In this document: in pieces, positions 22,383 to 37,904 of the stretch | How positions within the stretch are numbered: the stretch's first letter is position 1 | Layout: each line of letters opens with the position of its first letter | Origin: a virus | Taxonomy: Duplodnaviria; Caudoviricetes | Reading direction: 5' to 3' (one strand) | Length of the DNA stretch: 64,000 nucleotides | IMG/VR virus record: IMGVR_UViG_2928716645_000002 | Span: 32,001 to 96,000 of that record | Made by a program: the position numbers and the translations under genes | Notes under the pieces: generated by a model | What the model saw: only the letters and a program-made list of their open reading frames with translations | Databases searched by the model: none | What the model was told of the DNA's origin: nothing

Positions 22383-22400
22383 TCGGCCCTGCCTGTATGC

Positions 22401-24086: not shown

Positions 24087-24283
24087 TGCGATCGCGACGA
24101 CCGGTGCCGCCGGCGAAACTCTTTGTACCGGCCAGTTACGAGGGGCTCGGCGCGCCGCTTGCCACACCTGCTGGCGATGCCGACGGCCCGGTCAAGACGG
24201 CAATGTGGTAGGCGCCGCATGATCGCCATCGTGACGATGCGCGTCCCCGGGCGCTCGTGGTACGATCCCCGCCCGAGCGGCAT
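24083..24283 (-). CDS. Small very basic protein between terS and terL
   Basis: 66 aa; fills the terS-terL gap; its TGA overlaps the terL ATG (ATGA). Confidence 0.4.
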   Translation of the reverse strand: MPLGRGSYHERPGTRIVTMAIMRRLPHCRLDRAVGIASRCGKRRAEPLVTGRYKEFRRRHRSSRSQ

Positions 24284-24288
24284 GGCGA

Positions 24289-24750
24289 TTACTCGTTGAC
24301 CGCAGTGTTGTCGACGACCAGGCCAATCTTCGGCGGCTCCGGCGGCTGGAAGGCGCCTGACGCCGCGACGAGCTCAGCGGCCGCCTTGCGCTCGGCCTTT
24401 TTCCCAACCTTCTCGGGCTTCGGCGGCTGCAGCGGCGCCGGCGCCTGGCTGCCGGCACGCGCGAGATCGGACATCGCCTGCGCGGCCGCGGCCACGCGCG
24501 TCATCTCCTCAAGCTTTTTGATGCAGGTCGCGTTGCCTTTCTTGGCCTGCGTGTAGAGCATACCGACGACCTCGGCCCGCTTCTTGGCGACACCGGTCGC
24601 GATCTCCTCCCGGAACGACTTCACCAGCGTCGGGGTCGATATCCCGAGCGCTCGAGCGCAGTCGTCCTGGGACATCCCGCACGAGATCCACTGCTCAACC
24701 TTCGTGCGCTGCGTTTTTGTCGGCTTGAACGCCGGCCGCCCTCGGCCCAT
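24289..24750 (-). CDS. terS: Terminase small subunit
   Basis: Start MGRGRPAFKPT; HTH GMSQDDCARALGISTPTLVKSF.EE; GKKAE...AA; upstream of terL. Confidence 0.85.
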   Translation of the reverse strand: MGRGRPAFKPTKTQRTKVEQWISCGMSQDDCARALGISTPTLVKSFREEIATGVAKKRAEVVGMLYTQAKKGNATCIKKLEEMTRVAAAAQAMSDLARAGSQAPAPLQPPKPEKVGKKAERKAAAELVAASGAFQPPEPPKIGLVVDNTAVNE

Positions 24751-24807
24751 GCCGAAACTCCAATTTCTTTGCCAGTTTTGGCGTTCCGGCCGAATTTTCT
24801 GGCTGGC

Positions 24808-24886
24808 CAAAAAAAATTGCGGGAATGAGACCCCGTGCGGTAGGGGGTCCCGTCGGTTCCTAGACTTTCCGACCCCATACCCCCTT
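24808..24886 (-). other. Putative cos / packaging initiation region
   Basis: Minus strand GGGGGTATGGGGTCGGAAAGTCT...ACCGCACGGGGTCTCATTCCCGCAATTTTTTTT just upstream of terS. Resembles the G-run/T-run layout at cos ends of HK97-like HNH-terS phages. Exact nick not determined. Confidence 0.6.
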
Positions 24887-25102
24887 GGCCTCGAGCCGGT
24901 AGCGGCCATGGTGCATGCCGGCGCGTCGGTTGCGGGCTGGCGTCGGATTGGCTGGCGTTCAGCCTGGCCGAATAGTGTCAGCCCCTGCAGGCTATGTGCT
25001 GGCGCCGCGCCGCGCGCGGCAACCGCCCGCGCTCCAGTCTCGACTAGCTCGGTTGTGTGGTTGTGTCCTGTTGACGTGGCGGGCGCGCGCCGATCCGTCG
25101 GG

Positions 25103-25273
25103 CTATGCCGCACCGTGCGGCGCGCTGTCGCTTGGCAGTCCATCCCATGCGTCGGCGGCGCTGATGCAGCGCTCAACCCGGATGACCGGCAACACGATGA
25201 TGACTGCAGGTTGGCGCCGTTGTCGGCGGGCGCGGCGCGGTGCGGCGGGCTGTAGCTCGACTACCTCGCCCAT
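25103..25273 (-). CDS. Small hypothetical protein (56 aa)
   Basis: Hand translation MGEVVELQPAAPRRARRQRRQPAVIIVLPVIRVER...; same strand as the late operon. Confidence 0.4.
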   Translation of the reverse strand: MGEVVELQPAAPRRARRQRRQPAVIIVLPVIRVERCISAADAWDGLPSDSAPHGAA

Positions 25274-25290
25274 GCCGCGCCCCTGACATG

Positions 25291-25387
25291 CGAAACCCGC
25301 CGAGGCGGTGCGGCCTGGCGGGCTTTGGATTGCAGCGACAATGCGTCACCGTGCTTGCTCTGAATCGGAAATTGAGTCGGCTGTCAA
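25291..25387 (-). promoter_or_regulatory. Candidate late promoter with leader terminator (pR'/tR'-like)
   Basis: TTGACA (25387-25382, minus) followed about 55 nt later by hairpin AAAGCCCGCC...GGCGGGTTT (25326-25293). The -10 element is not clear. Confidence 0.4.
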
Positions 25388-25503
25388 ATCGCTGTTGCCC
25401 GGGTTGTCGGTGGATGATGGCGCCGACGGTGCGCCATGCCTCTCAATTCCGTGGTACTTGCCGGGCTAGATGACTGCGGCATAACTCAATCTTGAGGCGT
25501 CCA

Positions 25504-25815
25504 ATGATCGATACAAAGGCGAGTAAGGCAACAGCCAAGCGCAAGCCAGCGAGCCGGGCATTTGCATCCGCTGACACGTCACTGAGAATCAGCGCGGCCG
25601 AATTCCGGACCTGGCAGGAAGGCGCCGGGCTGTCGAATGCCGCAGCTGCCCGGCTGCTCTACGTGGCGGAAAACACGTTGGCACAATACCGCGCCAACGG
25701 CGCCGGTCCTGATATCGCCCGACAAATCTGGGCGATCATTGCAGGGATAAGGCCGGACACTGGGCGCCAACGCGCCGAGCTACTGGGCCGGATCAATGCG
25801 GCCCTAGACGGCTAA
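25504..25815 (+). CDS. XRE-like HTH protein, left end of the array
   Basis: ISAAEFRTWQEGAGLSNAAAARLLYVAENTLAQY helix-turn-helix. Confidence 0.7.
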   Translation: MIDTKASKATAKRKPASRAFASADTSLRISAAEFRTWQEGAGLSNAAAARLLYVAENTLAQYRANGAGPDIARQIWAIIAGIRPDTGRQRAELLGRINAALDG

Positions 25816-25854
25816 CGCCTCAATATTGCGATACCGACCCGGGCCAGCACAAAC

Positions 25855-25911
25855 TTTTTTCGCAATTTTGCGTTTTGCCAGTTGACGGCCGCGCGAATAT
25901 CTGCGCATGTG
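25855..25911 (+). promoter_or_regulatory. Candidate sigma70-type promoter for the array
   Basis: Phased T-tracts (UP-like), then TTGACG at 25882-25887; about 36 nt upstream of the first motif A hairpin. Confidence 0.45.
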
Positions 25912-25957
25912 CGCATCACCACGGCGCGATTGTGCGCAACTTCAAAGGCCCGGCGAA

Positions 25958-26122
25958 ATGATCCCCTTCATTTCCTTTTGCATCGCTAACCCGGCTTTCA
26001 CTCTGGCCATGCTCGCAGCGATCTATACCGCTTGCTGGGCCGCCCTTGCCCCCTTCCTTTACGCGCCCGCCAAGTCTCGGCGCCTTTCGATCCGGCGCCG
26101 TGCGCGCCGCGACCGCCGCTAG
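25958..26122 (+). CDS. Small membrane protein
   Basis: ATG after motif A/AAAGG; hydrophobic segment then Arg-rich tail. Confidence 0.55.
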   Translation: MIPFISFCIANPAFTLAMLAAIYTACWAALAPFLYAPAKSRRLSIRRRARRDRR

Positions 26123-26133
26123 GAGCTAGGCAC

Positions 26134-26352
26134 ATGCGAACGAAGCAAACATTGAAAACCGGAACGCGCATTGAATTGCATGGCACGCCAGCAATCGGCG
26201 CCTTTCCCGCGGTCGCTCCGGAGAGCGCGACAATCGCGCAATGGACTGCGGCAAGCGGTCCGCTCATGCCGGGTTGGCATATCGTCAAGTTTTCCGATGG
26301 CGGAAGGCTTTGCATCCACGAAAACCGATTCCGGGTTATCGACAACCGCTAA
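26134..26352 (+). CDS. Small SH3-like beta protein
   Basis: AGGAG SD; MRTKQTLKTGTRIEL...WHIVKFSDGGRLCIHENRFRVI. Confidence 0.65.
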   Translation: MRTKQTLKTGTRIELHGTPAIGAFPAVAPESATIAQWTAASGPLMPGWHIVKFSDGGRLCIHENRFRVIDNR

Positions 26353-26396
26353 CCCGTTCCACCGCGCAACTGTGCGCAACTGAAAAGGCCAAGCCC

Positions 26397-26477
26397 ATGG
26401 AAGATTTTCTAGACTTCACCCTGTTTTGCATCGCGGCGGTTGCCGGGACGTTCATCATCTTCGCTTGCTGTCTCTGA
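26397..26477 (+). CDS. 26 aa hydrophobic peptide
   Basis: Follows motif A + GAAAAGG; MEDFLDFTLFCIAAVAGTFIIFACCL. Confidence 0.45.
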   Translation: MEDFLDFTLFCIAAVAGTFIIFACCL

Positions 26478-26567
26478 CGATTTGCAGCCTATGCCGTGCG
26501 CGTCACGGCATAACCGGCAAACCGCCGACCCGCGCAATAGTGCGCAACTCAAAAGGAAGTAACTGAA

Positions 26568-27446
26568 ATGACTGTCTACACCGCAACCGCCCGTTTCGAT
26601 GGTACCGCCCGCGCGCTCACCGAGAACGAATTGCGCAAGTTGGCGCCGTCGGTCTTCGCGGTCGACGCGCACCATTCGCGTTCGGAGCGTTTCCAGCCTA
26701 TCCCGACTTTCGACGTGCTGCGCGCGCTGATGGCGGAGGGCTTCCAGCCCGTCGGCGCGAAACAGAGCGTTGCCCGGCTCGATGATCGCCGCGATTTCAC
26801 AAAGCATCTGATCCGGCTCCGCCGTCTCGACAACGCCACGGCGTACACCGTCGGTGATACCGTCTGCGAAATCCTCCTCAAGAATGCGAACGACGGAACG
26901 TCCGCCTATGACTTGATCGCAGGCCTTTTCCGTGTCCGTTGCCTCAATAGCCTTGTGGCACAGGTCGGCACGGTCGAGTCCGTCAAGGTCCGCCATACCG
27001 GCTCCGCGCAGGATGTTTCGCACAAGGTGATTGAAGGCACCTATCGCGTGCTGGGCGAGGCTCAGAAGGCGCTGGCGGCGCCGCAGGACTGGGCGCGCCT
27101 GGCCCTCAACACCGACGAAAAGCAGGTGCTGGCGGAAGCCGCGCACGTTCTGCGGTTCGGTGACGCGGAAGGCGAAACCAGCACGCCGATTCAGCCCGCG
27201 CAGTTGCTGCAGCCGCGTCGCCGCGACGACGTCGCCGCCGATCTGTGGACCACGTTCAATGTGGTTCAGGAAAACGTCATTCGTGGCGGGCTGACGGCGC
27301 GCGGCCGCGACGCCAATGGCCGGCGGCGCCGCGTCACCACCCGCGCCGTTAACGGGATCGATCAAGACGTGAAACTGAACCGCGCCCTGTTCACCCTCGC
27401 CGCCAAGATGGCGGAGCTCAAGGGCGCCGCCCCGCTCGCCGCCTAA
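26568..27446 (+). CDS. DUF932/DUF945 family protein (plasmid leading-region type)
   Basis: APSVFA..AH.SRSERF..IPT, FTKHLIRLR, EI.LKNANDGTSAY.L.AG.FR..CLN, DLWTTFNVVQEN.IRGG, GIDQDVKLNRAL. Confidence 0.9.
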   Translation: MTVYTATARFDGTARALTENELRKLAPSVFAVDAHHSRSERFQPIPTFDVLRALMAEGFQPVGAKQSVARLDDRRDFTKHLIRLRRLDNATAYTVGDTVCEILLKNANDGTSAYDLIAGLFRVRCLNSLVAQVGTVESVKVRHTGSAQDVSHKVIEGTYRVLGEAQKALAAPQDWARLALNTDEKQVLAEAAHVLRFGDAEGETSTPIQPAQLLQPRRRDDVAADLWTTFNVVQENVIRGGLTARGRDANGRRRRVTTRAVNGIDQDVKLNRALFTLAAKMAELKGAAPLAA

Positions 27447-27539
27447 GCGATTGCAGCCCATGCCCGGGCTTGTCCCGGGCATGATCGGCAACCGCCGGCA
27501 ACCGCGCAATTGTGCGCAACTCGAAAAGGGAAAACTGCC

Positions 27540-27644
27540 ATGAAGTATCGCCGCCACGAAACCGACCGCAAGCCCTGTGACAAGCGGACTCGCCGCGACG
27601 CGGTCCGCAACGGGAAGCGTGCTTACCTGAATTCCTGCCTGTGA
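27540..27644 (+). CDS. 34 aa Arg/Lys-rich peptide
   Basis: After motif A + GAAAAGGG; MKYRRHETDRKPCDKRTRRDAVRNGKRAYLNSCL. Confidence 0.5.
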   Translation: MKYRRHETDRKPCDKRTRRDAVRNGKRAYLNSCL

Positions 27645-27749
27645 GTACCGCTTCACTTTTGCGGCTTGTCCGCCTCTCATTCTTCGTCCGCGACGCTAGC
27701 GTGGTTATCAGCGTCGCAAGCATTCTCCTCATTCCCTAGGGAAACACCG

Positions 27750-28202
27750 ATGGAACTGAATAACCCTCATCTGCCGCGCAAAGGTGCCCGCGTCATGAAC
27801 GGCACCGATGATCGCGATTTGGGAGTCGTCATTGACGTCCGCGACAATCCCAACGGACCGGTACAGGTGAAATGGGACGGCGGAGAAACGGGTTGGCACG
27901 GCGCCGATGGTATCTATTTGGCGCGGCCGAACTCGTTTCTTTTCAACTGTTGCGCGGGCGACATCGCGCCCGATTGGTCGCAGTTCAAATCCCTGGAAAT
28001 CGGCGGGTGCGTCACCGAGACGGAAGAGAATGGCGACACGTTCACCATCGGCGGGAAGCCCGATAGTGAAGCCGAATTCTGGACGGTTTACGCCCGCCAC
28101 CATTCTGGCGAGGCGGAAGCGATCACGGATTGCAAAACCCGCGATGCGGCGGAATGCGCCGCCTCGCAACTGCGCGACCTTTCCCACCTTCCCATGACTT
28201 GA
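27750..28202 (+). CDS. Hypothetical protein (SH3-like N-terminus, acidic C-terminal domain)
   Basis: Start MELNNPHL; G.RV...LGVVID...VQVKWDG; AEFWTVY.RH..G.AEAITDC. Confidence 0.7.
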   Translation: MELNNPHLPRKGARVMNGTDDRDLGVVIDVRDNPNGPVQVKWDGGETGWHGADGIYLARPNSFLFNCCAGDIAPDWSQFKSLEIGGCVTETEENGDTFTIGGKPDSEAEFWTVYARHHSGEAEAITDCKTRDAAECAASQLRDLSHLPMT

Positions 28203-28293
28203 CGTTGCGACACTGCGCAGTGCCTGGCGCTGCGCAGCACGGAACGCCAAAGCGGACCAACGCGCGATTGTGCGCAACGAAAAGGACTCGGAC

Positions 28294-28497
28294 ATGCGAG
28301 GGATTTGGACTCTCTACGTTGACCAATACGGCAACCATTGGGGTGCCAGCACGGTGGCAGAGCTGCGCGCCAAGATCGGCCGCGGCAGGGTCGCCAAGAT
28401 GTATCGCGACAAGCCGCACGGCGGCGCCGTCCATTGCGGCTACATCGTTGGGCCGTATTGGTGCACGGCCTATCGGCCGGTTGAACTGGCCGCCTAG
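28294..28497 (+). CDS. Small hypothetical protein, ends LAA
   Basis: After motif A + AAAAGGA; MRGIWTLYVDQYG...KMYRDK..G..VHCGYIVG..W. Confidence 0.7.
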   Translation: MRGIWTLYVDQYGNHWGASTVAELRAKIGRGRVAKMYRDKPHGGAVHCGYIVGPYWCTAYRPVELAA

Positions 28498-28559
28498 CGG
28501 CGCCGTTTCGAGACTTCACCCCGCGCGATTGTGCGCAACTGAAAGAGGAGCAATTCAAC

Positions 28560-29123
28560 ATGGCTTGGCAGTTCTATGACTTTTTCGACCATCCGACCAT
28601 CGAAGGGCCGTTGCCCGAAAAGCGCTGGATCAAGCACGCCAGCGACAAGCGACACAAGGTCCGCCACAGCTCGAAAGTCACCCGCTCCACCGGCGGCGTA
28701 TCCGCCAATGACCTGAACGAACGGCACACGCTCGAATATGCCCGCTGGCTGGCCCAGCGCGACGGGATCACTATCCCGCCCGGCTCCGAATATATCGTTC
28801 AGCGGGCTGACGTGAACGTCCCGGGCAGCAAGCCTCAATCCCGAATCCGCGCGGTCGAATTCGGCAAGCGGCGGACCACGCAAAGCGGCTACGGTCGCAG
28901 CGCCTGCACTAGGCACCATTGGGACGTCGCCGCCCGGATCGAAATTCCGAACTGGGATTGGCAACCCGCCGAACCGGTTGAGGAGATCATCCCGGAAGCG
29001 GTCCCGGTCCCGGTTGCGCCTTCCTTCAAGATCCCGGCGCGGATCCTGCGCACGTCTTGCCTTGTGCCCGTTCTGGCGCGTGTCCCGGTTGCGCCTTCCT
29101 GCGCAATCCGGCTTGCGGCTTGA
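28560..29123 (+). CDS. Hypothetical protein, ends LAA
   Basis: After motif A + GAGGAG; Pro-rich C-terminal linker with two VPVAP copies. Confidence 0.7.
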   Translation: MAWQFYDFFDHPTIEGPLPEKRWIKHASDKRHKVRHSSKVTRSTGGVSANDLNERHTLEYARWLAQRDGITIPPGSEYIVQRADVNVPGSKPQSRIRAVEFGKRRTTQSGYGRSACTRHHWDVAARIEIPNWDWQPAEPVEEIIPEAVPVPVAPSFKIPARILRTSCLVPVLARVPVAPSCAIRLAA

Positions 29124-29494
29124 TGGTGGCGCCGATGAAACGCCAGCAAGCTCCGACGTTCAGTCAGTTGTGCGACGCGCTGCAGTCGCGCCCCGCTCCG
29201 TGCTCGCAAGCCGAGTGGCGCGAGGCCTCAACCGCCATGCGCCTGGCCCGCCGCCATCCCGGCCGCGTCGGCAGGACCATCTATATCGAGTGCGGGACGT
29301 TCGCGCGGCGCGTTTACCTTGAAGCGACCTGGGGCGGGATGAATTGCTACAACGGCCCGCACCCGTTCGGTTATGTCAACATGATCGCGCATCACCGATT
29401 CATGTTCCAGCAGGGACTGCGGGAAGGCCGCGTTGCGGAGGCAAGACAATTTGCGGAGGCCTCGCGCCTCCGCGGTCCGGTGCCGCTGCCATGA
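29123..29494 (+). CDS. Hypothetical protein
   Basis: TGATG-coupled to the upstream gene. Confidence 0.55.
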   Translation: MVAPMKRQQAPTFSQLCDALQSRPAPCSQAEWREASTAMRLARRHPGRVGRTIYIECGTFARRVYLEATWGGMNCYNGPHPFGYVNMIAHHRFMFQQGLREGRVAEARQFAEASRLRGPVPLP

Positions 29495-29598
29495 CGCGGA
29501 AGCCTCAACCCCGCAAACAGCGCTGCCCGTACTGCAGGCAGCTGCGGCCCTTCTACATGATCGCAGCGCACATCACCCAATGCGAGGCCCTACGGTAG
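29491..29598 (+). CDS. 35 aa C2HC zinc-finger peptide
   Basis: ATGA-coupled; CPYC-x11-H-x3-C. Confidence 0.55.
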   Translation: MTRKPQPRKQRCPYCRQLRPFYMIAAHITQCEALR

Positions 29599-29697
29599 GG
29601 TCTCGGCTACGGCCGATTTCCGCAGTGGATGACGTTCACCCCCGGCGGCGGCTGATTCCTAATTCGCGCGATAGTGCGCAAAGCGAAAGGATGACAC

Positions 29698-29895
29698 ATG
29701 CGAACAATCAAACCCGCGACGCCCGATAACGCAATTTGCCTCGGGAACGCGATAGAGGCGATGAAAAAGGCACGCCACTGGATGCGCGCGGCCGAATGCC
29801 CGAAGGCGCTCGAAGCGCTGCAGGAAGCGCTAAAAAGCGCGGAAGGTGCAAAGCGCCACATGCAACACCGGCTGAACCGCACCGCGGCCCGCTGA
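29698..29895 (+). CDS. Small helical hypothetical protein
   Basis: After motif A + GAAAGGA. Confidence 0.65.
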   Translation: MRTIKPATPDNAICLGNAIEAMKKARHWMRAAECPKALEALQEALKSAEGAKRHMQHRLNRTAAR

Positions 29896-29941
29896 ATTCT
29901 TCCCCCTCGGCTACGGCTAATTTTGAAAGGAGATCACCTCA

Positions 29942-30844
29942 ATGAGCACAATCACGATTTGGACTTGCACCACCGAAGGCGACAACTGCGGGACCGAAAC
30001 GACGGTCCATGCCACGGAAGCCGCGGCGGTGGATTATGTGCGCGGGAGCCTGCGCGATATCCTCAAGCGGAACCCCGAGCGCCTGGCCGCGATCGAGGCC
30101 GCGACCGCAGAGAATATCGCGGAGCTCTGGGAAGACTCCGTTGACGGCCCCTGCATCATCGAAGAGCAGGCCGTTGCGTTGCCGCCGTTCGCGGTTGCAA
30201 TCTATGAAACTCGGCACGGCGACGAAACGCGACTCTACCCCAACAGCGACGCGGCGCGCGCCTGGCGCAGCGAGATCGCCGCCGAGAACTGGGCGGCACG
30301 AATGGACGAGGACAAACCAGCCGATCCGGACGAGGTAGCCGAAGCCTATTTTGAGCGCGTCGGAGAGATGCGCGGCGATTTCTTCCGGCTCGAGGAATTG
30401 GAGATTGTCGGCGGCACAGTCCCGGTTGCGCCTGCGCAGGATTGGCGCCAGATCGCGCGCGACCTGGCCGCCGCGCTCGACTCCTGCACCCATCAGATTG
30501 GCCAGATGCGCGGCATGTTCAGCGACGAGGACGGCACAATTTCGGGAGCAGTTTCCGACGCCGAAGACGCAGCCGCAGCCTACCGCCGGGCGGCCGCCGG
30601 CCTCCCGCCTGCGCCCGCGCCACAATTCATCGGACAGGATGACCGCGCTTGCGCGGAAGGCTGGGGGCTGTTCGAGAACAGCGACACCGGCAAACTGGAA
30701 ATTCAGGCCGACGCCGAGTCCTCAATCTTTGTTTGCGACGGCGTGAGCCACGACGACGAAGCCGAGGTCTTCGTAAAGACTCAGGCAGCCGCGGGCAGCG
30801 AGTACCACGCCTTGGCGCTGCTGCGCGTCGGTACCGCGCAATAG
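29942..30844 (+). CDS. Acidic multi-module hypothetical protein
   Basis: GAAAGGAG SD; two similar N-terminal modules (T.VHATEAAA / TRLYPNSDAA), VPVAP linker, strongly acidic. Confidence 0.75.
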   Translation: MSTITIWTCTTEGDNCGTETTVHATEAAAVDYVRGSLRDILKRNPERLAAIEAATAENIAELWEDSVDGPCIIEEQAVALPPFAVAIYETRHGDETRLYPNSDAARAWRSEIAAENWAARMDEDKPADPDEVAEAYFERVGEMRGDFFRLEELEIVGGTVPVAPAQDWRQIARDLAAALDSCTHQIGQMRGMFSDEDGTISGAVSDAEDAAAAYRRAAAGLPPAPAPQFIGQDDRACAEGWGLFENSDTGKLEIQADAESSIFVCDGVSHDDEAEVFVKTQAAAGSEYHALALLRVGTAQ

Positions 30845-30900
30845 TCCCGGCTACGATCGATTTTGCACCCCCGAGCTACGGCCGATTTTGCAAACACCGC

Positions 30901-30930
30901 TTGACAGATTCGGCCGACGCAAATTAGAGA
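30901..30930 (+). promoter_or_regulatory. Candidate internal promoter
   Basis: Perfect TTGACA at 30901, TAGAGA 18 bp later; sits between a motif B pair and a motif A copy. Confidence 0.5.
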
Positions 30931-30971
30931 ACCAGCCCTGCGCGATTGTGCGCAAATTGAAAGGACGAGAA

Positions 30972-33119
30972 ATGCAGCATTCCGCCACCTATTCGCCCGA
31001 CGATAACAAGCTGCGCCTTTATCCGGCGCACCGCCTCGACGCCGAGGATTACGCGCGCGTGAAGGCCGCCGGCTTCAAGTGGGCGCCGCGTCAAGAACTG
31101 TTCGTCAAACCGACCTGGAGCCCCGGCGCCGAAGACTTGCTGATTGAGATGTGCGGCGAAATCGGCGACGAAGACACCACGCTGACCGACCGCGCCGAGC
31201 AGCGCGCGGACCGCTTCGAGGAGTACAGCGACAAGCGGCTTTCGGAAGCCAACCGCGCGCGCGAGGCCGTGGACCAGATCGCGGAGCGGTTTGCGATGGG
31301 GCAGCCGATCTTGGTCGGCCATCACTCGGAGAAGAGCGCGCGGCGCGACAAGGAGAAGATGGACGCCGGCATGCGCAAGGCGCTGAAGCTCTGGGACACC
31401 TCGAATTATTGGACTGCGCGCGCGGCCGGCGCAATCGCTCACGCCAAATACAAGGAACTGCCGGCGGTGCGTCATCGCCGCATCAAGACAATTGAGTCCG
31501 ACAAGCGGAAGTTGGAACGGCTGCAGGCGGACACTGAACGCCAGCTGAAGGCCTGGCAGATCGTCGCCGACATCACCGACCCGGAGAAGCAGCGCGCGGC
31601 CGGCTTGGCCGTGGCCAACGCGGGCGGCTTTTGGTCGATGTCGTTTCCGCTGGCGGATTATCCGCGCGACCCGCCGGCCTCGCAGTATGAGGGACCGATG
31701 GGGCTTTGGTCGGCGATTGACGGGAACGTCATCACCGCCGCGCAGGCTGCCGCTATCGCGATTCCGAGCCTGGAGCGGTCCGGGCCTTCGCGAGCCCGTT
31801 GGTTGGCCCACTATGACAACCGGCTGGCCTACGAACGCGCGATGCTGGCCGAACAGATCGGCGCCGAGGCCACCGCTAACCCGCTGGCCGACCGCTTCGC
31901 CTTCGCCGTCGGCGGTCAGATTCAGACGCGCCGCGGCGACGAGTGGCTTACGATTGTGAAGGTCAGCAGGGGCGCTAACGGTTCGGTTTCCAGCATTCAA
32001 ACCGCGGCCCCCTCAGGATCGCGCGGGCGCGGTGTTTACTGGAAGGTCGAAAGCGTCCGCGACTATCGCGCGCCGACCGCCGAGAACGTCGCCACGGCGA
32101 AGGCAGCCACCAAGCTGCCGCCGCTCTGCAACTATCCCGGCGAGGGATTCCGCGAAATGACGGAGGCCGAATGGAAGGGCCGCCGGCAGTGGTCGGATTT
32201 CTCCTATGTGCGCGGCATTGAGGCAACCGAGACCGCACAGAAGCACCGCGCGCGATTCATGCCGGTACCGGGCAAGATGTGGGAGCGCCAGCAAGTTTTC
32301 ATTACGGATGCAAAGCGCGTCGATCCGCCCAGGATCGCGCCGGCAGCCGAGCCGCAGGCGCCCGCGGAATTTGTCGCCGAATATGTAGCGCCGCCGGTCG
32401 CCGATCTTGACGCCACGCTGGAAGTGGTCGGCGAGATCATGGCGGAGCCGTCGCCGGTTGAGACGGTGCCGGAGGTCGTCCCGGTTGCGCCCGCGGAGGC
32501 GTCGCGCCATCTCCCGGATACGGCCGATTTGCCGGCGCCCTCTTCGGCCGACACGTTCGAGGCCATGCGGGCAATGCTGAAAGGCGGCGGCGTGCAAGTC
32601 GTCGTCGCGCCGCAGTTGTTCCCGACATCGCACGCACTGGCGGGCGACGTCGCAGAGCTCGCCGACATCCGAGACGGGCACCGTGTGCTTGAGCCTAGCG
32701 CCGGCACTGGCGTGTTGATCGAGGCGGCGCGCCGCAATGTCGACGGCTACATCGATATTGTCGCGGTCGAGATCAACCCGACGCTTGCGCGCGGCCTGGC
32801 CGGTCGGTTTCCCGGCGTCAAGGTCATCAACGCCGACTTCCTCGAGGTGGACAGCTCCGAGATGGTCGGGAAGTTCGACCGCATCCTGATGAATTCGCCA
32901 TTCGAACGCGGCGCAGACATCAGACATATCGAGCACGCGCGCACGTTTCTGCGGCCTGGTGGCCGGCTCGTCGCGATCTGCGCGGACGGTCCACGCCAGC
33001 GCGCGAAGTTCGAACCGATCGCGACGGAGTATCGCGCCCTGCCCGCCGGGTCCTTCAAGGCCGCCGGCACAATGGTCAACACGGCGCTCGTCGTCATCGA
33101 CGGGCCGCCGCCGGGGTAA
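30972..33119 (+). CDS. DUF3560-domain protein fused to an N6-adenine-type DNA methyltransferase
   Basis: ATYSPDDNKLRLY, GQPILVGHHSEKSARRD (DUF3560); C-terminal VLEPSAGTG, AVEIN, ADFL, FDRILMNSPF, LRPGGRLVAI. Confidence 0.88.
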   Translation: MQHSATYSPDDNKLRLYPAHRLDAEDYARVKAAGFKWAPRQELFVKPTWSPGAEDLLIEMCGEIGDEDTTLTDRAEQRADRFEEYSDKRLSEANRAREAVDQIAERFAMGQPILVGHHSEKSARRDKEKMDAGMRKALKLWDTSNYWTARAAGAIAHAKYKELPAVRHRRIKTIESDKRKLERLQADTERQLKAWQIVADITDPEKQRAAGLAVANAGGFWSMSFPLADYPRDPPASQYEGPMGLWSAIDGNVITAAQAAAIAIPSLERSGPSRARWLAHYDNRLAYERAMLAEQIGAEATANPLADRFAFAVGGQIQTRRGDEWLTIVKVSRGANGSVSSIQTAAPSGSRGRGVYWKVESVRDYRAPTAENVATAKAATKLPPLCNYPGEGFREMTEAEWKGRRQWSDFSYVRGIEATETAQKHRARFMPVPGKMWERQQVFITDAKRVDPPRIAPAAEPQAPAEFVAEYVAPPVADLDATLEVVGEIMAEPSPVETVPEVVPVAPAEASRHLPDTADLPAPSSADTFEAMRAMLKGGGVQVVVAPQLFPTSHALAGDVAELADIRDGHRVLEPSAGTGVLIEAARRNVDGYIDIVAVEINPTLARGLAGRFPGVKVINADFLEVDSSEMVGKFDRILMNSPFERGADIRHIEHARTFLRPGGRLVAICADGPRQRAKFEPIATEYRALPAGSFKAAGTMVNTALVVIDGPPPG

Positions 33120-33196
33120 TTCCGGCCGCCCTCCCGCTTACGACCGATTTCCCATCCTCCCCTCGGCTACGGCCGATTCCGAAAGGAGCTTGATTC

Positions 33197-33754
33197 ATGT
33201 CCGACCGCTTTACCTCTGAGGAAATGCACCTGCTGAAGCAACTTCAGAACGGCCCGCAGCGCGACCGCGACCGCATACCTGAACGTGTTCTCGTCAATAG
33301 CGGGATGGCCCGGCGTGCCGATTCTGGGATGATCGAGATCACAAACGCCGGCCGCGCATGGATGGATTTGCCTGACGTCGGCGAGGAACTCGGCCGCGCT
33401 CGCGCCAGCATCCATAGTTTCGACCGCTTCAAGGCAGGCGATCCGGCGCGCAGCATTTTCCGAAAGATGGGCCTTCTGGAGTATCTCGATGCGGCGCAGA
33501 GCTGGGGGCAGTTGCGGGCGCTCATCGTGCGATTCAACGACCCCGACAAGGGTCACTTCGTGAAGCGAGCCAAGCAATGCGACGGCGTCTGCAGTTCGGG
33601 CGAGCGCGTCTTACTGCATGCCATCCTCTACGTGACCGACTTCGCCTGGCTGGCCGACAAGCTGGGTGGCAAAGAGGTATGGCAGAACATGAACCGTGCC
33701 GGCGGTGAACACCGTGCGGCGGTTGCGGCCTGCATCGGCGCTGAGGTGTACTGA
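33197..33754 (+). CDS. Hypothetical protein (wHTH-like N-terminus)
   Basis: GAAAGGAG SD after a motif B pair; LVNSGMA...IEITNAGRA. Confidence 0.7.
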   Translation: MSDRFTSEEMHLLKQLQNGPQRDRDRIPERVLVNSGMARRADSGMIEITNAGRAWMDLPDVGEELGRARASIHSFDRFKAGDPARSIFRKMGLLEYLDAAQSWGQLRALIVRFNDPDKGHFVKRAKQCDGVCSSGERVLLHAILYVTDFAWLADKLGGKEVWQNMNRAGGEHRAAVAACIGAEVY

Positions 33755-33755
33755 C

Positions 33756-34034
33756 ATGGCAAGCGCGCAACTGCTAATCGCCGCCGGCTTCAGGGTCACC
33801 ACGCGCGCCGAGTTCGACGCCGCCACCGACGTGCCCGCCGGGATGCGCCTGGTGGCCACGCGCATCTTCAAGCGATGGGGCGGCGACTTCGTGGTGTACG
33901 ACCCGGCCGGCGGCGATGACGGCTGGCTACTGATCGATTATGATCGCGACCAGATCATCGGCGAGACGATCGAGCACCTCGGGCGGCTCGCACCGCCCGA
34001 GCCGCCGGCGCCGGCACAAGGTTCGCTGTTCTGA
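33756..34034 (+). CDS. Hypothetical protein with C-terminal clamp-binding-like motif QGSLF
   Basis: Start MASAQLL; ends PAPAQGSLF. Confidence 0.65.
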   Translation: MASAQLLIAAGFRVTTRAEFDAATDVPAGMRLVATRIFKRWGGDFVVYDPAGGDDGWLLIDYDRDQIIGETIEHLGRLAPPEPPAPAQGSLF

Positions 34035-34078
34035 TACCGGATACGATCGATTTTGAAACTGGAAAGGAGAGAACGCAG

Positions 34079-34528
34079 ATGCAGCATAGCAACGTGATTA
34101 ACCGCCTTCTCGGTACCGGCACACTCACATGGGCAAGCGCCGAACGCCGGAGCGACCGTTACGGAACGGTTTATCTGATACCGCATCGCCATAACTCCCT
34201 CACGCGCAATCCCTCTGTGTCGCTCATCGACGTTGAGGCGGCTCGCGCGTTTGAGGGACGCCGGGGAGACCTGGTCGCGGTTGTGAAAGAGACACGGGAA
34301 AGCACTCACATCGGAGACCTGTTCCGCGGCGTCTCTCCCCGTACGCCGGAGGTCGGCCAAATCATCGCGCTCGGTTCGGGAACGCTGATTATTGAGCCCG
34401 CACCAGAGGGCGGCGTGATGGTCGGCCTTCGACCCGACGACGGTCGCGATAGCGATTGGTTGCGCATCCGGGCGCTCTACGACGCGCATGAACAGACCGT
34501 CGACCTGCACTTCCATCCGACGAAGTGA
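34079..34528 (+). CDS. Hypothetical protein
   Basis: GGAAAGGAG SD; LTW...ERRSDRYG.V.L, ETRESTHIGDLFRG motifs. Confidence 0.7.
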   Translation: MQHSNVINRLLGTGTLTWASAERRSDRYGTVYLIPHRHNSLTRNPSVSLIDVEAARAFEGRRGDLVAVVKETRESTHIGDLFRGVSPRTPEVGQIIALGSGTLIIEPAPEGGVMVGLRPDDGRDSDWLRIRALYDAHEQTVDLHFHPTK

Positions 34529-34538
34529 GGCCGCGGTC

Positions 34539-34913
34539 ATGTCGAGAACCGTCCGCCGCGTGCCCGCCGACTGGCAGCATCCTCGCAACTCCTCCGGCCG
34601 CTACATCCCGCTGGCTTATGCCCTCCCGGATGCGCCCACGCCCTACCCGGCCGCCAGCTATATGCCGGCATGGCCGACCGCGGAGCGGACGCATTGGCAG
34701 TTGTACGAGACCACCAGCGCCGGCACGCCGGTTTCGCCGCCCTGCCCATCGCCCGAGGCTTTGGCCAAATGGCTGGCCGACCACCACACGGAGGCCGCGC
34801 CGGGATTCACGGGAACTGAGGCGCAATGGCTCGGCGCAATCAAGCGCGGCGGCGTCATCCCGCCGGTGATGTCCGTCGGCAAGCGCCTGGTCAATCCGCT
34901 CGACTACACCTGA
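34539..34913 (+). CDS. Hypothetical protein
   Basis: MSRTVRRVPADWQHP...YMPAW...THWQLYETTSAGTPVSP...EALAKWL. Confidence 0.7.
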   Translation: MSRTVRRVPADWQHPRNSSGRYIPLAYALPDAPTPYPAASYMPAWPTAERTHWQLYETTSAGTPVSPPCPSPEALAKWLADHHTEAAPGFTGTEAQWLGAIKRGGVIPPVMSVGKRLVNPLDYT

Positions 34914-35006
34914 TCGGCCGGGACTCCCGGCTACGATCGATTTTGTGCTACCCCCTCGGCTACGGCCGATTCCGGGCGACTGTGCCCAACCGGAAAGGAT
35001 CCTGAG

Positions 35007-35330
35007 ATGTCACCACCACGATTTGTCCACCGCAAGATCTCGAGCGACGATTTCAAGGCCGAACTGGCCAAGCAGGGCATGTCGGTGTCGGCGTTCGCGC
35101 GGGTCTGGTGCCAGAACCTCTCGACCGTCAGGAAGTGGGCGAACGGCGGGAACGATATCCCGACCTGGGTGCCGATCGCGCTGACCATGATGACGCTGCC
35201 GAATGCCCACGGGACCGCACGCATGGCGGCCGCGGCGATGATCCAGCAGGACCGGCTGCATCCCGAGCTCGGTGAATTTCCCTATCAGAAACTGCGGCAG
35301 ATGCCGGCGGACGACGAGATCGAGGAATAG
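35007..35330 (+). CDS. XRE-like HTH protein, right end of the array
   Basis: ISSDDFKAELAKQGMSVSAFARVWCQNLSTVRKWANG..DIP.WV; preceded by motif B pair and the variant motif A. Confidence 0.75.
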   Translation: MSPPRFVHRKISSDDFKAELAKQGMSVSAFARVWCQNLSTVRKWANGGNDIPTWVPIALTMMTLPNAHGTARMAAAAMIQQDRLHPELGEFPYQKLRQMPADDEIEE

Positions 35331-35336
35331 CCCCGG

Positions 35337-35552
35337 CTACGATCGATTTTGCGCGCTGCGCCTTTTCTTCGCCGCGCTCCGCTTCTTCGCCGGTGATCGC
35401 TTGGCGGCTGGCATCGGCGTCGACTCCTTTGCCGCTGCGGCAGCCGCAGCGTCCCGAGCATCGAGCTCCCGCTTCTGCGCCTGCATCCGCTCGAACCTGG
35501 CTTCGCGCTGAGCCCGCAGCGCGTCGGCGCGCGGTGATGGTTCGCGTCCCAT
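35337..35552 (-). CDS. Small basic Ala/Lys-rich protein
   Basis: MGREPSPRAD...AKRSPAKKRSAAKKRR; TAATG-coupled; its stop lies inside the last motif B. Confidence 0.5.
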   Translation of the reverse strand: MGREPSPRADALRAQREARFERMQAQKRELDARDAAAAAAAKESTPMPAAKRSPAKKRSAAKKRRSAQNRS

Positions 35553-35827
35553 TAAGCTGGGTCCTCCCATCGGACCGGCGCTTCGCCGACCTCGAGCATA
35601 ACCGGCGGGTGCGTGCGCGAGATAATCCGAAGATGCACCGCCGCCCCTGCATTGAGCCGTGCCAGCTCTTCCGCCGTCGGTTTCCATGCCGACGTTAGCG
35701 ATGGCAGCGAGTCGTTCAGCACCTCAGCGCGGATCGGGAGATCGAAACATTCACCGTTTCGCTCCTCGTTCCAGTCTTTCGGAGCGGCCAACACCATGTT
35801 GGAGCCGGAGATCTTGGCAATTTCCAT
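35552..35827 (-). CDS. Hypothetical phage protein
   Basis: APKDWN....C..LP.R...SAWKPT.EEL..LNAG...HPPV pattern. Confidence 0.7.
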   Translation of the reverse strand: MEIAKISGSNMVLAAPKDWNEERNGECFDLPIRAEVLNDSLPSLTSAWKPTAEELARLNAGAAVHLRIISRTHPPVMLEVGEAPVRWEDPA

Positions 35828-35836
35828 TGTGCTCTC

Positions 35837-36181
35837 CTACGATCTCATGCGGTTTGCTCGAGCTTGAATGCCGGCCCGGGTGTTGTGGCTGTTGCAGGCG
35901 CAGCGGCCATTAGCCAGGTCGCGGGCCAGATCCGGGCGATCTCTGACGTCTTGGATGTGATCGGCGTACATCTGGTCGCCACGCGCCTTGCTGCGCTCGC
36001 AGCGGACACCATTCTCAACGTGCTCGCAGCGCCAGCCGGCGCGCTGTTTTACCTTCAACGCCCACTGCTGGTGCTCGACGGTCTGATAATGCGGGTCCGC
36101 CCGCTTCTCCGGAGGCTTCACCTTCCTGGTGTCCAGCGTCGGGACGCGCGGGCTGAGAGACGGAATTCGCGATCGCCTCAT
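35837..36181 (-). CDS. HNH endonuclease (packaging-associated, gp74-like)
   Basis: Y....W...VK.RAGWRC...C...ADHI..V.D....D..NG.C.C..H; ATGA-coupled start MRRSRIPSL. Confidence 0.85.
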   Translation of the reverse strand: MRRSRIPSLSPRVPTLDTRKVKPPEKRADPHYQTVEHQQWALKVKQRAGWRCEHVENGVRCERSKARGDQMYADHIQDVRDRPDLARDLANGRCACNSHNTRAGIQARANRMRS

Positions 36182-36363
36182 TTCTTTTCTCCCCGCCGCG
36201 GTCCGAACATCTTCCGCCCCATCGCGCGCACCATCTCCCGCTGGTCCCAGGTCATGTGGTCGTTGTCGACATCGAGCAGCAAAAGACCGTATTCCCGCCA
36301 CACCCGCTGCTTCGTCTCGAGCGGGGTTTCCCGCGTGTTGGGCGCAAACCGTCCGAGCGACAT
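36178..36363 (-). CDS. Small hypothetical protein
   Basis: MSLGRFAP...; coupled to the HNH gene. Confidence 0.55.
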   Translation of the reverse strand: MSLGRFAPNTRETPLETKQRVWREYGLLLLDVDNDHMTWDQREMVRAMGRKMFGPRRGEKK

Positions 36364-36374
36364 CGATCCGGCCC

Positions 36375-37280
36375 CTACTTCAGAAATCCGGCGGCGCCCA
36401 ACACTCGGCGCGCAGCGCTCCACGTCCGATCGATAATCGTGACGTGATCGTAGACCCCGGCCAAAGCGTTTAACGCAACCTTCAGTTCGATGTTGCTTGA
36501 CCGGTGGTCTGGGCCGCCATGCTTGTGCATGTCCTCTGCGCTGGCCTCGTAGCCAATCCGGGCAAGCAAGATTTCGAAATGCCGCTCACCGAGCCGGCGC
36601 TTGGCCTCGTTGAGCCGAGCCTGCGCCTCGAGCGCGATCGTGTGCGAGGGCGAACCGCCGCCGCCGCCGTCGACCTTGTCCTGGAGCGCGAAGCCTCGCG
36701 ACCCGTGGAACGTGGCCAGATCGAAGTCGCGCCGGAACCGATCTGCGGCGCTCTGGCGCAGCTTGTCCTCTGGATCGGCAGCGCCCCGCTTCTTCGACTC
36801 GGTCAGATTGAGATGCGAGGCCCGGACGGTGTCGACCATCACGTTGAGCCGCGGGTTTTCCGGATCCGGGATGATGTGCTTGCGCCGGCCGCTGGCGAGC
36901 CGCTCGGCCTCGTCCGCCGCCTTCTGTTCCTTCTTGGTGAGCGGCTTGCCCCAGAGATTCAGCGGGTCGGTCGAGTCGACGGTCCCGCTCCGGAAACCCT
37001 GCTGGAACAGCTTATTCCGATGCAAGGCTTCCTTGACGCGGCGCGCGCCCTCTGTGTCGCGGTCCATCAGGTACTCGACCACGAGTTCCTGGACGATGCG
37101 CTGCCTGCGGCGCGTCTCTTCGAATAGGAGTTGACCTTCGTAAGTCAGCCCCTTGTACGACTCCATCGGTGTGGCTCGACGGATATCGCGCATGAATGCA
37201 CGGGCGCGGCGATCGCGCGCCTTGTCGACGTGCACCGTCGCAACATCCGTGATCTGTGCTTGAGACATTCCATCCTCCAC
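36375..37280 (-). CDS. Late gene activator / antiterminator candidate (DUF6456/GafA-like C-terminus)
   Basis: AADRFRRDFDLA...VDGGG...AQARL..A...LG...LK.AL..LA..Y pattern; occupies the Q position. Confidence 0.6.
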   Translation of the reverse strand: MEDGMSQAQITDVATVHVDKARDRRARAFMRDIRRATPMESYKGLTYEGQLLFEETRRRQRIVQELVVEYLMDRDTEGARRVKEALHRNKLFQQGFRSGTVDSTDPLNLWGKPLTKKEQKAADEAERLASGRRKHIIPDPENPRLNVMVDTVRASHLNLTESKKRGAADPEDKLRQSAADRFRRDFDLATFHGSRGFALQDKVDGGGGGSPSHTIALEAQARLNEAKRRLGERHFEILLARIGYEASAEDMHKHGGPDHRSSNIELKVALNALAGVYDHVTIIDRTWSAARRVLGAAGFLK

Positions 37281-37409
37281 GCAGAATCACGAATAGATTT
37301 CGCGGAGGTGATTTGTCTACGATTGCAAGAGGAAAGTTGAAGCGTCATCCACCAGTGCTTTAGAGACGCGGCATACACGACGACGGCCGCCGATCGACGC
37401 TCGCGGCCT

Positions 37410-37901
37410 TCACATCGTGAACTTGGCACCGAGCTGCCGCAGCATTTCGTAAGGCCCGATGTACTCGACGCCGAACTGCTTGCAGACATTCGGGATCTTT
37501 GGCTTCTTCGACGTCGCATCGACGAGCTGCTCGGCTGTCGCGACGATCATTCCGTCTACCTGGGCTCGGGCGATAAGCCAGGCGTCGGCCCCTTTGAGGA
37601 ATTCGCTGGCGTTGTGCTGCGGGTACGTCTTGACGACATATTCCGCTATTGGCTGATACGCGGCCTGAACTGGCGCGGCGGGCGGCTGGAAGAACTGCGT
37701 GCCGTCGCGATCCTTGACCCAATCAGCCAGTTCATCGCCGAAACCAACCATCTCCTCGTAGACGGTGCGGCATGACACGATCCGGCCAGACGCTGACTCC
37801 TTGTCGAGCCAGGTCCAGAATCCCGGCACGATATCCATGGCGTAGGGGCCATTCTGCGCTTGGATGAAAATGTTGCTGTCCAAACAATACGGCTTCGGCA
37901 T
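37410..37901 (-). CDS. DUF4411 family PIN-domain protein
   Basis: YCLDSNIFI, PGFW.WL, VYEE, ADAWLIA.A, T.E, KIPNVC..FGV. Confidence 0.88.
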   Translation of the reverse strand: MPKPYCLDSNIFIQAQNGPYAMDIVPGFWTWLDKESASGRIVSCRTVYEEMVGFGDELADWVKDRDGTQFFQPPAAPVQAAYQPIAEYVVKTYPQHNASEFLKGADAWLIARAQVDGMIVATAEQLVDATSKKPKIPNVCKQFGVEYIGPYEMLRQLGAKFTM

Positions 37902-37904
37902 CGA

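Follow-up and report, generated by a model that had tools for sequence, protein, structure and literature searches.

What is a block of genes that runs against both of its neighbouring operons doing in the packaging region of a tailed phage, between the cohesive-end site and the HNH endonuclease gene? We addressed this question in IMG/VR virus record IMGVR_UViG_2928716645_000002 (Duplodnaviria; Caudoviricetes), a provirus record of 107,984 bp of which bases 32001–96000 form the 64,000-nt stretch analysed here (the window, whose own numbering is used throughout); record-wide repeat scans cover all 107,984 bp. The block, referred to below as the array, consists of 19 plus-strand genes (g01–g19, positions 25504–35330), called on GC content at third codon positions (GC3), Shine–Dalgarno (SD) and start-codon context, and its gaps are punctuated by two short repeats, A and B. 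It lies between the small terminase gene terS, with the adjoining cos-like element, and the packaging HNH gene, both flanks being on the opposite strand; an initial annotation, made from the sequence alone, was right on the number, strands and coordinates of these genes. Our analysis indicates, with a probability of about 0.55, that the block is an accessory operon array, modular and conserved in a lineage of HK97-like cos phages of Bradyrhizobium and related soil bacteria, and that it would act as a self-regulated establishment module.

Position of the array and its conservation

The large terminase of the window fits the HK97/phiE125 3′-cos type, and the closest sequenced terminases are those of the Burkholderia phages phiBt-TXDOH and Bcep176, with terL identities of 55–57%. 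The Bcep176 record opens with an HNH gene (123–512), closes with terS (44328–44765) and carries the 10-nt GGAACGTGCG at both ends, the cohesive end thus being present in duplicate. Window positions 24790–24895 align with this end junction (AATTTTCTG ... CGTGCGGT ... AGACTTT..G.ACCCC). The resulting cos-like element lies approximately 90 nt from the terS start, the same distance as in Bcep176, and is the best conserved portion of the spacer between terS and g01 in six relatives and in the distant relative L242. Homology to the Bcep176 cohesive-end junction and conservation in relatives thus support a cos site near 24.85 kb, as had been proposed, with the cohesive-end region itself predicted at approximately 24838–24851 (CCCCGTGCGGT). 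The record ends of Burkholderia phage vB_PR2a, which looked re-set to terS, were not used as cos evidence. In addition, one host assembly contig is unbroken over 20001–39508 and runs through the predicted cos.

Both flanks of the predicted cut stay beside terS, which places the array between cos and the HNH gene, as the terminal 10.5 kb of the terS-distal end with inward transcription. These sequence comparisons support the view that cos adjoins terS and not the HNH gene, which is found 11 kb from cos with the array in between. The module therefore resembles the Bcep176/phiE125/HK97 type in its terL identity, the presence of an HNH gene and a homologous cos element, but departs from it in that the HNH gene and cos/terS, approximately 200 bp apart in Bcep176-type modules, are here separated by 11 kb of opposite-strand genes, indicating that the adjacency of HNH, cos and terS in HK97-like phages is not obligatory. 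In phage lambda, the end opposite the terminase genes is packaged last and ejected first; by this rule, the array end would enter the cell first.

The array is a real and lineage-wide feature. It occupies the same position in at least ten related proviruses and contigs, with conserved anchor genes and mosaic cargo between them. The order portal–terL–terS (minus strand), array (plus strand) and HNH (minus strand) is the same in six 20-kb loci with terL identities of 44–85%, and was found again in further contigs in which g19 is just 55–60% identical and in one distant contig. The repeat A pattern, in multiple same-strand copies, is present in at least eight other IMG/VR proviruses (9–11 copies in each of five records) and also in Bradyrhizobium sp. 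C9. Together with the identity of one relative to a stretch of B. embrapense SEMIA 6208 and the origin of the named g19 homologues, which come from Bradyrhizobium, this makes Bradyrhizobium very probably the host. A near-identity search with the block in a phage collection gave no match.

When the 144 array proteins of six arrays were clustered, they fell into 56 families. A syntenic backbone is kept (g01, g06, g13, g14, g15, g16, g18, g19 and others), and cassettes are present or absent between the repeats. The DUF932 gene g05, for example, is absent in five of six close relatives; most relatives lack it and four further genes of the window, having instead genes for a 365-aa protein and an ArdC-N protein as well as a three-gene set. 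The expectation that related phages would vary in gene content between conserved repeats was therefore borne out by cassettes that are swapped, and a fixed gene set was not found. Of the BLASTN homology ends, 16% lie inside a repeat (expected, 3%) and 31% no more than 20 nt from one (expected, 8%); this enrichment fits exchange at the repeats but is confounded, as no other intergenic sequence is conserved.

A strand opposite to both flanks, a cassette structure with border repeats and plasmid-like genes are also what an independent mobile element within the prophage would show, be it a satellite, an integron-like cassette array or an island. We consider such an origin very improbable indeed. 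Profile scans of the block found no gene for an integrase, for replication or for a relaxase, and the block has the same position in every relative, down to a terL identity of 44%. GC is approximately 63% across the window, the block shows no compositional break, and its GC content and skew match those of the flanks; attC-like long imperfect repeats are not present.

Repeats A and B and the helix-turn-helix proteins

Most intergenic gaps had been described as carrying repeats, and A and/or B are indeed present in 12 of the 13 gaps longer than 30 nt. Repeat A (GCGCRATWGTGCGCAA) is a hairpin or palindrome with a 5-bp stem and a 4-nt loop, which always stands ahead of an SD and precedes roughly half of the array genes. 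Its seven exact copies are all on the plus strand and all within the block; outside the block the 107,984-bp record contains none, and a reversed control pattern likewise gave none. A copy with an ACTG loop (26364) and the stem variant GGGCGACTGTGCCC before g19 (34974) bring the total to nine modules. Across 81 copies the 16-mer is invariant save for position 5 (G in 58, A in 23) and loop positions 7–8, the distance to the SD core is 5–7 nt in 75 of them, and the end of the repeat lies 16–21 nt ahead of the start codon. Upstream of 52 non-redundant copies nothing is conserved except a preference for CC, and no −35 element was seen; a two-element promoter was ruled out, a −35 at fixed distance being absent. 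A direct repeat of two GCGCAA units was also ruled out, as variant stems change as pairs and not as repeats. Ahead of two copies, those of g02 and g14, lies a conserved TTGACR box, at a spacing that would place repeat A at the very start of the transcript. Scans for strict sigma-70 promoters and for terminators gave matches at chance level and none at the repeats, and an Rfam search of 24.0–36.5 kb at E≤1 returned no family.

Since A and B are confined to the block and CI-type operators lie elsewhere, the suggestion that the array has its own regulatory grammar outside CI control stands. Dyads of the form ATACC-N5-GGTAT were found only at 53.2 and 56.2 kb and, as stated earlier, none is present in the block. 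There are five of them (three perfect), in two clusters at 53196–53280 and 56157–56195, compared with 0.17 expected by chance, and these clusters are presumably the immunity region with its operators.

Distant arrays retain the repeat A module with paired stem changes and with loops that range from ATTG to CCCC. The stems are GGCCR..TGGCC and TGCCG..TGGCA in L242, CGGCR..TGCCG in L247, TCGCA..TGCGA in L245, GCGAA..TTCGC in L250, TTGCA..TGCAA in L243, and GGGCG..TGCCC in both L255 and the g19 leader of the window. Among 64 distinct modules, two-sided changes were found in four of the five stem pairs (22 cells) and collapsed in slid controls, and the closing pair is G·U in 46 and A–U in 18. An unbiased scan for the centre RANNGT followed by an SD and a start codon showed nearly all array-strand matches within arrays to be fully outer-paired, compared with 0 of 31 on the other strand. 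When viral contigs were scanned for the variant 14-mers, most matches were single and attributable to chance, and L419 alone was informative.

The single orientation, the fixed SD spacing, the wobble pairs and the asymmetric conserved centre favour action at the level of mRNA, and we conclude from the sequence that this is most likely how repeat A acts; a function as a dyad DNA operator is possible, above all at the two promoter-proximal copies. Taken to its limit, a purely DNA-level account would have a dimeric XRE repressor (g19 or g01) bind a 14-bp dyad at 9–12 sites, repress two promoters, roadblock elongation and keep the array silent in the lysogen, with no role for RNA. Such an operator agrees with the dyad of 5-bp arms and a 4-bp spacer, with symmetric arm changes as in half-sites, with the XRE-fold proteins that bracket the array, with an arm type that tracks the start of the g19 recognition helix and with an A-like perfect palindrome upstream of the −35 of the promoter-like region P1, remote from any SD. 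However, a symmetric operator needs neither a single orientation nor a fixed distance of 5–7 nt from the SD, and the centre is asymmetric; in 72% of copies position 5 is a G facing an invariant T, a combination that pairs (as a wobble) only in RNA. In distant lineages, moreover, a single genome can contain different arms around an unchanged RATTGT centre. We therefore regard a purely DNA-level operator as unlikely.

Repeat B (CGGCTACGRYCGATT) has six exact copies, on the plus strand only and in the block only (control 0, in the full record), and 11 copies when looser matches are included, one of them in frame inside g14. It starts 0–3 nt past a stop codon, is followed by an SD, a repeat A or a TTGACA box, and often forms a tandem B′–B pair 25–29 nt apart. 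The form CCCC..GCTACGRYYGATTTTG is kept in all lineages irrespective of A type. Folding is restricted to the CGGCUACGGCCG form (−9 to −12 kcal/mol, with a UACG loop) and is not seen for the B′ copies, indicating that repeat B is a sequence motif and not a structure; an RNA hairpin family was ruled out for the same reason. Two other candidates were rejected, namely a sigma-70 −10 element (TACGAT), which has no matching −35, and a host Chi-like site, with 0 copies outside the block in the 108-kb record. Repeat B might be a site of RNase E-type processing (at GA/UUUU), a weak terminator or a second site for protein binding.

The in-frame B motif of g14 (32513–32529, encoding LPDTADLP) lies exactly between the DUF3560 part and the methyltransferase domain, with a GAGG-type SD and an ATG in the same frame (32566) after it. 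It is also present in the relatives L233 (12507, where there are two B copies) and L232 (8428), and the 365-aa protein of family F09 holds one; in g14, it looks like a gene fusion over a cassette junction or an internal start for a stand-alone methyltransferase. A 14-nt repeat, GTCCCGGTTGCGCC, encodes VPVAP at 29007–29020, 29082–29095 and 32478–32491, in the C-terminal tails of g09 and g14 and also in F09 of relatives, and resembles the degenerate B-like CCCGGCTGCGCC found ahead of many B copies.

The array had been described as bounded by two XRE helix-turn-helix (HTH) genes, a claim that holds at the level of the predicted fold (AlphaFold and Foldseek) and not at that of Pfam, where matches were sub-threshold only. 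For g01, the Pfam values were 0.024 (Xre-like-HTH) and 0.045 (HTH_31), and the AlphaFold model (predicted local distance difference test, pLDDT, 72.7; core 84–90) matches Aca10, HipB, C.Kpn2I and P2 C. The g19 model, built with 28 homologues, is a five-helix bundle (pLDDT 87.5) with its best fold matches in the C-terminal domain of HigA2 (template modelling score, TM, 0.74; root-mean-square deviation 2.0 Å), Aca1, Aca2 and controller proteins. The Foldseek E-values are weak (0.04–0.3 for the best matches of the two proteins, and 0.04–0.9 over the Aca-like resemblance of g19), PDB profile searches reached E-values of 0.2–1 at best, and g19 has no Pfam or NCBIfam match above threshold and does not fall in a described Aca family. 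The g19 family numbers 338 representatives at E≤0.001 and, wherever the context sufficed, g19 closes a plus-strand array that converges on HNH or minus-strand genes. At the other end of the array, a conserved element at 25360–25400, kept across both g01 types and L242 and containing two GANTC (CcrM-type) sites 12 nt apart, is a candidate g01 promoter region that may be methylation-sensitive.

The sequence of g19 also follows the type of repeat A stem. The motif W/F-C-Q-N-L/I spans the turn and the start of the recognition helix in 46 of 48 close g19 homologues, and all examined loci with the CQNL form have GCGC stems. The two exceptions are F-G-V-N-L in L242, which has GGCC stems, and F-G-V-G-E in L247, which has CGGC stems; a distant F-G-L-N-L form goes with GGGC stems. 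The sequences of g01 and g06 do not follow stem type, and both were rejected as stem-tracking factors. This covariation points to g19 as the binder of repeat A, although not conclusively. A precedent for such a protein is provided by Aca1 and Aca2, HTH proteins that bind a promoter inverted repeat and also its hairpin in the 5′ untranslated region (5′UTR), just before the ribosome-binding site, blocking translation (PMC13551039).

The repeats might also have no dedicated trans-acting factor, being portable initiation and junction modules (a hairpin insulator with a strong SD, and a gene-end spacer) that were spread and homogenized by inter-phage recombination, as proposed for the T4 promoter early stem-loop (PeSL) elements, so that their identity would reflect concerted evolution. 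That the repeats bound cassettes, that homology ends are enriched at them, that several stem types occur together in one genome and that the in-frame B motifs of g14 and F09 lie at domain borders, like recombination scars, would all be expected of such modules. They would, however, leave unexplained a 16-mer that is invariant in 81 copies across phages with 40–60% identical proteins while the middle of the loop varies freely, and compensatory changes that are concerted across many copies in one genome, where the stem of a neutral insulator would drift. Repeats without a dedicated factor are, in our judgement, improbable.

Cargo of the array, proposed function and flanking regions

The cargo had been reported to include DUF932 and DUF3560-methylase genes, and profile searches agree. 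The variable cargo gene g05 encodes a DUF932 protein (Pfam PF06067, 4e-34) that is up to 71% identical to Rhizobium/Agrobacterium plasmid proteins, and g14, found in all relatives, encodes a DUF3560 domain (Pfam 2e-33) fused to a class I, N6-type DNA methyltransferase domain. The latter matches mad2 of the MADS system (PADLOC, 7e-18) and type II DNA methyltransferases and, with no nuclease partner in the block, is an orphan methyltransferase. In addition, a 137-aa ArdC-N protein is present in five close and two distant relatives. At least 5000 plasmid records are matched by the DUF3560 part, 82% of them predicted to be conjugative, and at least 5000 by DUF932 (88%); the assignment of both to conjugative-plasmid cargo is thus upheld as abundance, in a count made at the level of plasmids and not of leading-region position. 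In the single plasmid context inspected, the neighbours are parB, an HTH gene, ligD and a methyltransferase, and the plasmid is typed as non-mobilizable. PADLOC found no defence-system match in the block.

In distant relatives, at the g19/HNH junction or in the array, we also observed genes for a TROVE (Ro60-like) protein, Acb3-family proteins, a DUF4942/DUF6094 methyltransferase and a small sigma-70 region-4 protein (L243 5492–6808 and 9165–10019; L250 9884–10750; L254 420–1748; L253 323–541), several of which are of counter-defence type.

Among the remaining genes, g13 encodes a conserved acidic 300-aa protein for which a protein atlas gave no informative neighbour. The g06 product is a 34-aa arginine-rich peptide (MKYRRHETDRKP..KRTRR..GKRAYLNSCL), 74–82% conserved in every array, near or distant; it recalls arginine-rich RNA-binding motifs and provides a second candidate for the ligand of the hairpins. 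The product of g02 (54 aa) has a hydrophobic helix and then an RRRARRDRR tail, and that of g04 (26 aa) is hydrophobic; from their sequences, both genes, each with a repeat A of its own, resemble genes for small membrane peptides. A perfect hairpin, CCATGCCCGGG-CTTGT-CCCGGGCATG, at 27459–27484, upstream of the repeat A before g06, matches other host-assembly contigs at other depths, indicating a host palindrome of the repetitive extragenic palindromic (REP) kind within the array. Before g05, positions 26478–26524 form a hairpin of similar structure with a different stem.

The cos-proximal end of the late region is a known type of insertion hotspot, of which the old/tin loci of P2 are examples. 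The array could accordingly be a cluster of lysogenic-conversion genes (morons) that the prophage expresses to the advantage of the lysogen, for example in superinfection exclusion or host-DNA methylation, with its position by cos reflecting a permissive hotspot as in P2-like phages. Promoters and regulators of its own, apart from the CI operators, the small hydrophobic peptides of g02 and g04 and the orphan methyltransferase would suit a cluster of this kind; the lack of defence-system matches, cargo (ArdC-N, DUF932 and the DUF3560-methyltransferase) that is of the type carried by incoming elements, and an inward orientation from the terminal end that is held in every relative would not, and leave it a doubtful explanation.

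In the establishment module that we favour, the array would fill the last 10.5 kb of the terS-distal virion end with its genes pointing inward, and its cargo would consist of shuffled small genes, the recognizable ones (the DUF3560-methyltransferase, DUF932 and the ArdC-N of relatives) being of the conjugative-plasmid establishment kind. The repeat A hairpin would gate translation or stabilize a processed 5′ end of the mRNA, and its two promoter-proximal copies may double as a DNA operator. Its ligand would probably be an array-encoded factor, with the terminal g19 the best candidate by analogy with Aca1 and Aca2, and repeat B would mark gene ends, from stop codon to B and from B to SD. In this model, the array would be expressed early and act in counter-defence. 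A fuller version, which we put forward only tentatively, is that the array may be the phage counterpart of a plasmid leading region, a first-entering counter-defence array in which approximately ten initiation regions are gated by one hairpin, read as RNA (and as DNA at the promoters) by the XRE HTH protein of the array, with the repeats doubling as cassette joints.

Several points weigh against this interpretation. The genome of a siphovirus enters within minutes and the order of entry may therefore give little. Most array genes have no family, Pfam, PHROG and PADLOC giving nothing for most of them. The alignment used for counting pairs was selected for pairing, such that the value of 100% paired holds by construction; the A hairpins reach no more than a moderate predicted stability (−6.7 to −8.9 kcal/mol, z −0.5 to −2.2), and a palindromic DNA operator would yield equal symmetric arm changes. 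The covariation between g19 and the stems rests on three variant lineages and is imperfect: L242 has three stem types with one g19, including one canonical and one TGCC copy, and L419 has three stems with one 35%-identical g19-like gene and a conserved GATYGT centre. The mixed stems of L242 and L419 fit recognition of the loop plus shape, or no specific factor.

If the proposal is true, the temperate cos phages of soil alphaproteobacteria have, by convergence, come to place establishment genes on the first-entering DNA, as plasmids do, and the array provides dozens of small uncharacterized proteins that could be screened for counter-defence activity.

The features of the array and its flanks are listed in Table 1. 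For terS, the short form was chosen because the PHROG match spans only residues 142–284 of the long open reading frame 24289–25176. At the other end, the array and the minus-strand genes converge at 35.33–35.55 kb, where orf91 and the HNH gene form the end of a minus-strand early/replication operon; the region beyond HNH on this strand encodes an XRE-protease regulator, a DnaB helicase, a primase, a clamp-like protein and two large methyltransferases. Two DNA methyltransferase genes outside the array lie on the minus strand at 42972–45605 and 49187–50284 (PHROG 1.5e-42 and 1.5e-37), which with g14 gives the phage at least three methyltransferase domains. All assemblies break at a 35-nt stretch (39479–39513) with a word depth of 500–780, compared with 56–335, indicating a multi-copy element within the replication region. 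A tRNA scan found none.

Table 1. Coordinates of the array genes, repeats and flanking features in the window
Feature	Position	Strand	Remarks
Portal	20842–22152	−	Flank
terL	22401–24167	−	PHROG terminase large subunit, 4e-113
terS-like small terminase	24289–24750	−	PHROG terminase small subunit/phrog_12540; 84% identity in relatives
cos-like element	24790–24895		Contains the predicted cohesive-end region
Conserved element upstream of g01	25360–25400	+	GAATC 25362, GAGTC 25374
g01	25504–25815	+	Gene call, as for g02–g19
P1 promoter-like region	25861–25923	+	Palindrome CGCAATTTTGCG 25861–25872; invariant TTGACG 25882–25887; conserved GCATGTGCG; alignment of six relatives; putative function
Repeat A copy 1	25924–25939	+	Before g02
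g02	25958–26122	+	
g03	26134–26352	+	
Repeat A copy 2	26364–26379	+	ACTG loop; before g04
g04	26397–26477	+	
Repeat A copy 3	26532–26547	+	Before g05
g05	26568–27446	+	
Repeat A copy 4	27504–27519	+	Before g06
g06	27540–27644	+	
g07	27750–28202	+	
Repeat A copy 5	28262–28277	+	Before g08
g08	28294–28497	+	
Repeat A copy 6	28523–28538	+	Before g09
g09	28560–29123	+	
g10	29135–29494	+	
g11	29491–29598	+	
Repeat B, hairpin form	29602–29618	+	Directly after g11 stop; −12.3 kcal/mol
Repeat A copy 7	29666–29681	+	Before g12
g12	29698–29895	+	
Repeat B	29906–29922	+	Abuts SD of g13
g13	29942–30844	+	
Tandem B′–B pair	30846–30887	+	After g13 stop
TTGACA-N17-TTAGAG, promoter-like	30901–30929	+	Upstream of g14; conserved in relatives; putative function
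Repeat A copy 8	30940–30955	+	Before g14
g14	30972–33119	+	
Tandem B′–B pair	33133–33178	+	Before g15
g15	33197–33754	+	
g16	33756–34034	+	
Repeat B′	34036–34052	+	Abuts SD of g17
g17	34079–34528	+	
g18	34539–34913	+	
Tandem B′–B pair	34926–34971	+	After g18 stop
A-variant hairpin GGGCGACTGTGCCC(AA)	34974–34989	+	Before g19; conserved in L232 and L233
g19	35007–35330	+	
Terminal repeat B′	35332–35348	+	Right after g19 stop, at convergent junction
orf91	35552–35827	−	phrog_34105; convergent with array end
HNH endonuclease	35837–36301	−	PHROG HNH, 3e-8

Comparison with known systems

The start-associated sequences (SAS) of cluster K mycobacteriophages occur in 11–19 copies per genome and are of unknown function; the SAS is a 13-bp GGGATAGGAGCCC that contains the SD and lies 3–7 bp from the start codon, and approximately half of the copies have an inverted repeat immediately upstream, the extended form (ESAS) having arms of 17 bp and a spacer of 4–13 bp (PMC3203893). 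The likeness drawn in the initial annotation between these elements and the array is apt, as the repeats described here are also multi-copy, in one orientation, placed before the starts of a subset of non-structural genes and absent from the host. In contrast with SAS/ESAS, repeat A is a 14-nt hairpin lying 5–7 nt upstream of a separate AAAGGA and has no sequence similarity to them, and the two systems differ in host phylum, phage type and genome position, the array being a terminal block at the cos end. The hairpin-before-SD module nevertheless offers a tractable system for the role of phage start-associated repeats, which has been unresolved since the cluster K SAS in 2011, and also bears on the reach of Aca-type dual DNA/RNA control past single acr promoters.

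As in acr–aca operons, a small gene of XRE fold stands at the 3′ end of an operon of counter-defence type (PMC13551039), an inverted repeat or hairpin follows directly downstream of a promoter-like site and ends approximately 20 nt before the start codon (16–21 nt here), and Aca1, Aca2 and Aca10 are among the top folds of the modelled g19 and g01. The array differs from these operons in having no member of an Aca sequence family, no known Acr gene and a second HTH gene at its 5′ end; the motif, found once or twice at one promoter in acr–aca operons, occurs here 9–12 times along a 10-kb array of 19–27 genes.

Orphan methyltransferases and ArdC-type genes are typical cargo of the leading regions of conjugative plasmids (PMC11541004). 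These share with the array DNA that enters first (as predicted here from the lambda rule), genes transcribed from the entering end and islands of small, mostly uncharacterized genes. We found no ArdA, KlcA, PsiB or SSB in the array; the orphan methyltransferase, the ArdC-N of relatives and DUF932/DUF3560 are present, all pointing inward. The array differs, however, in being part of a double-stranded DNA phage genome with no oriT, relaxase or single-stranded DNA promoters. Counter-defence genes on the first-entering end, with promoters leading, are also a feature of the T7 early, T5 pre-early (first-step-transfer) and Autographiviridae early-injected regions (PMC12455610), although in these phages entry is staged, slow or enzyme-driven, whereas a lambda-like siphovirus ejects its DNA quickly, and there is no sequence relationship.

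A further likeness that had been suggested, to the T4 PeSL elements, fails on one point, as no conserved promoter accompanies repeat A (52 copies, with two TTGACR boxes only); PeSLs have an early sigma-70 promoter beside each stem-loop, and the strict consensus scan located none at the repeats here. Integrons combine a tyrosine integrase and attI with attC sites at the 3′ ends of cassettes, whereas no integrase is present in or next to the block and repeat B is a motif of 16–20 nt, mostly without dyad symmetry. The array thus belongs to none of the leading region, SAS, PeSL, integron or Aca families, each of which fails on a defining feature, and is new relative to the SAS/ESAS start-site repeats and the Aca-regulated counter-defence islands, of which it looks like a variant. 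Its closest analogue is cluster K SAS/ESAS in form, Aca control in proposed mechanism, and the plasmid leading region or the T7/T5 early regions in logic.

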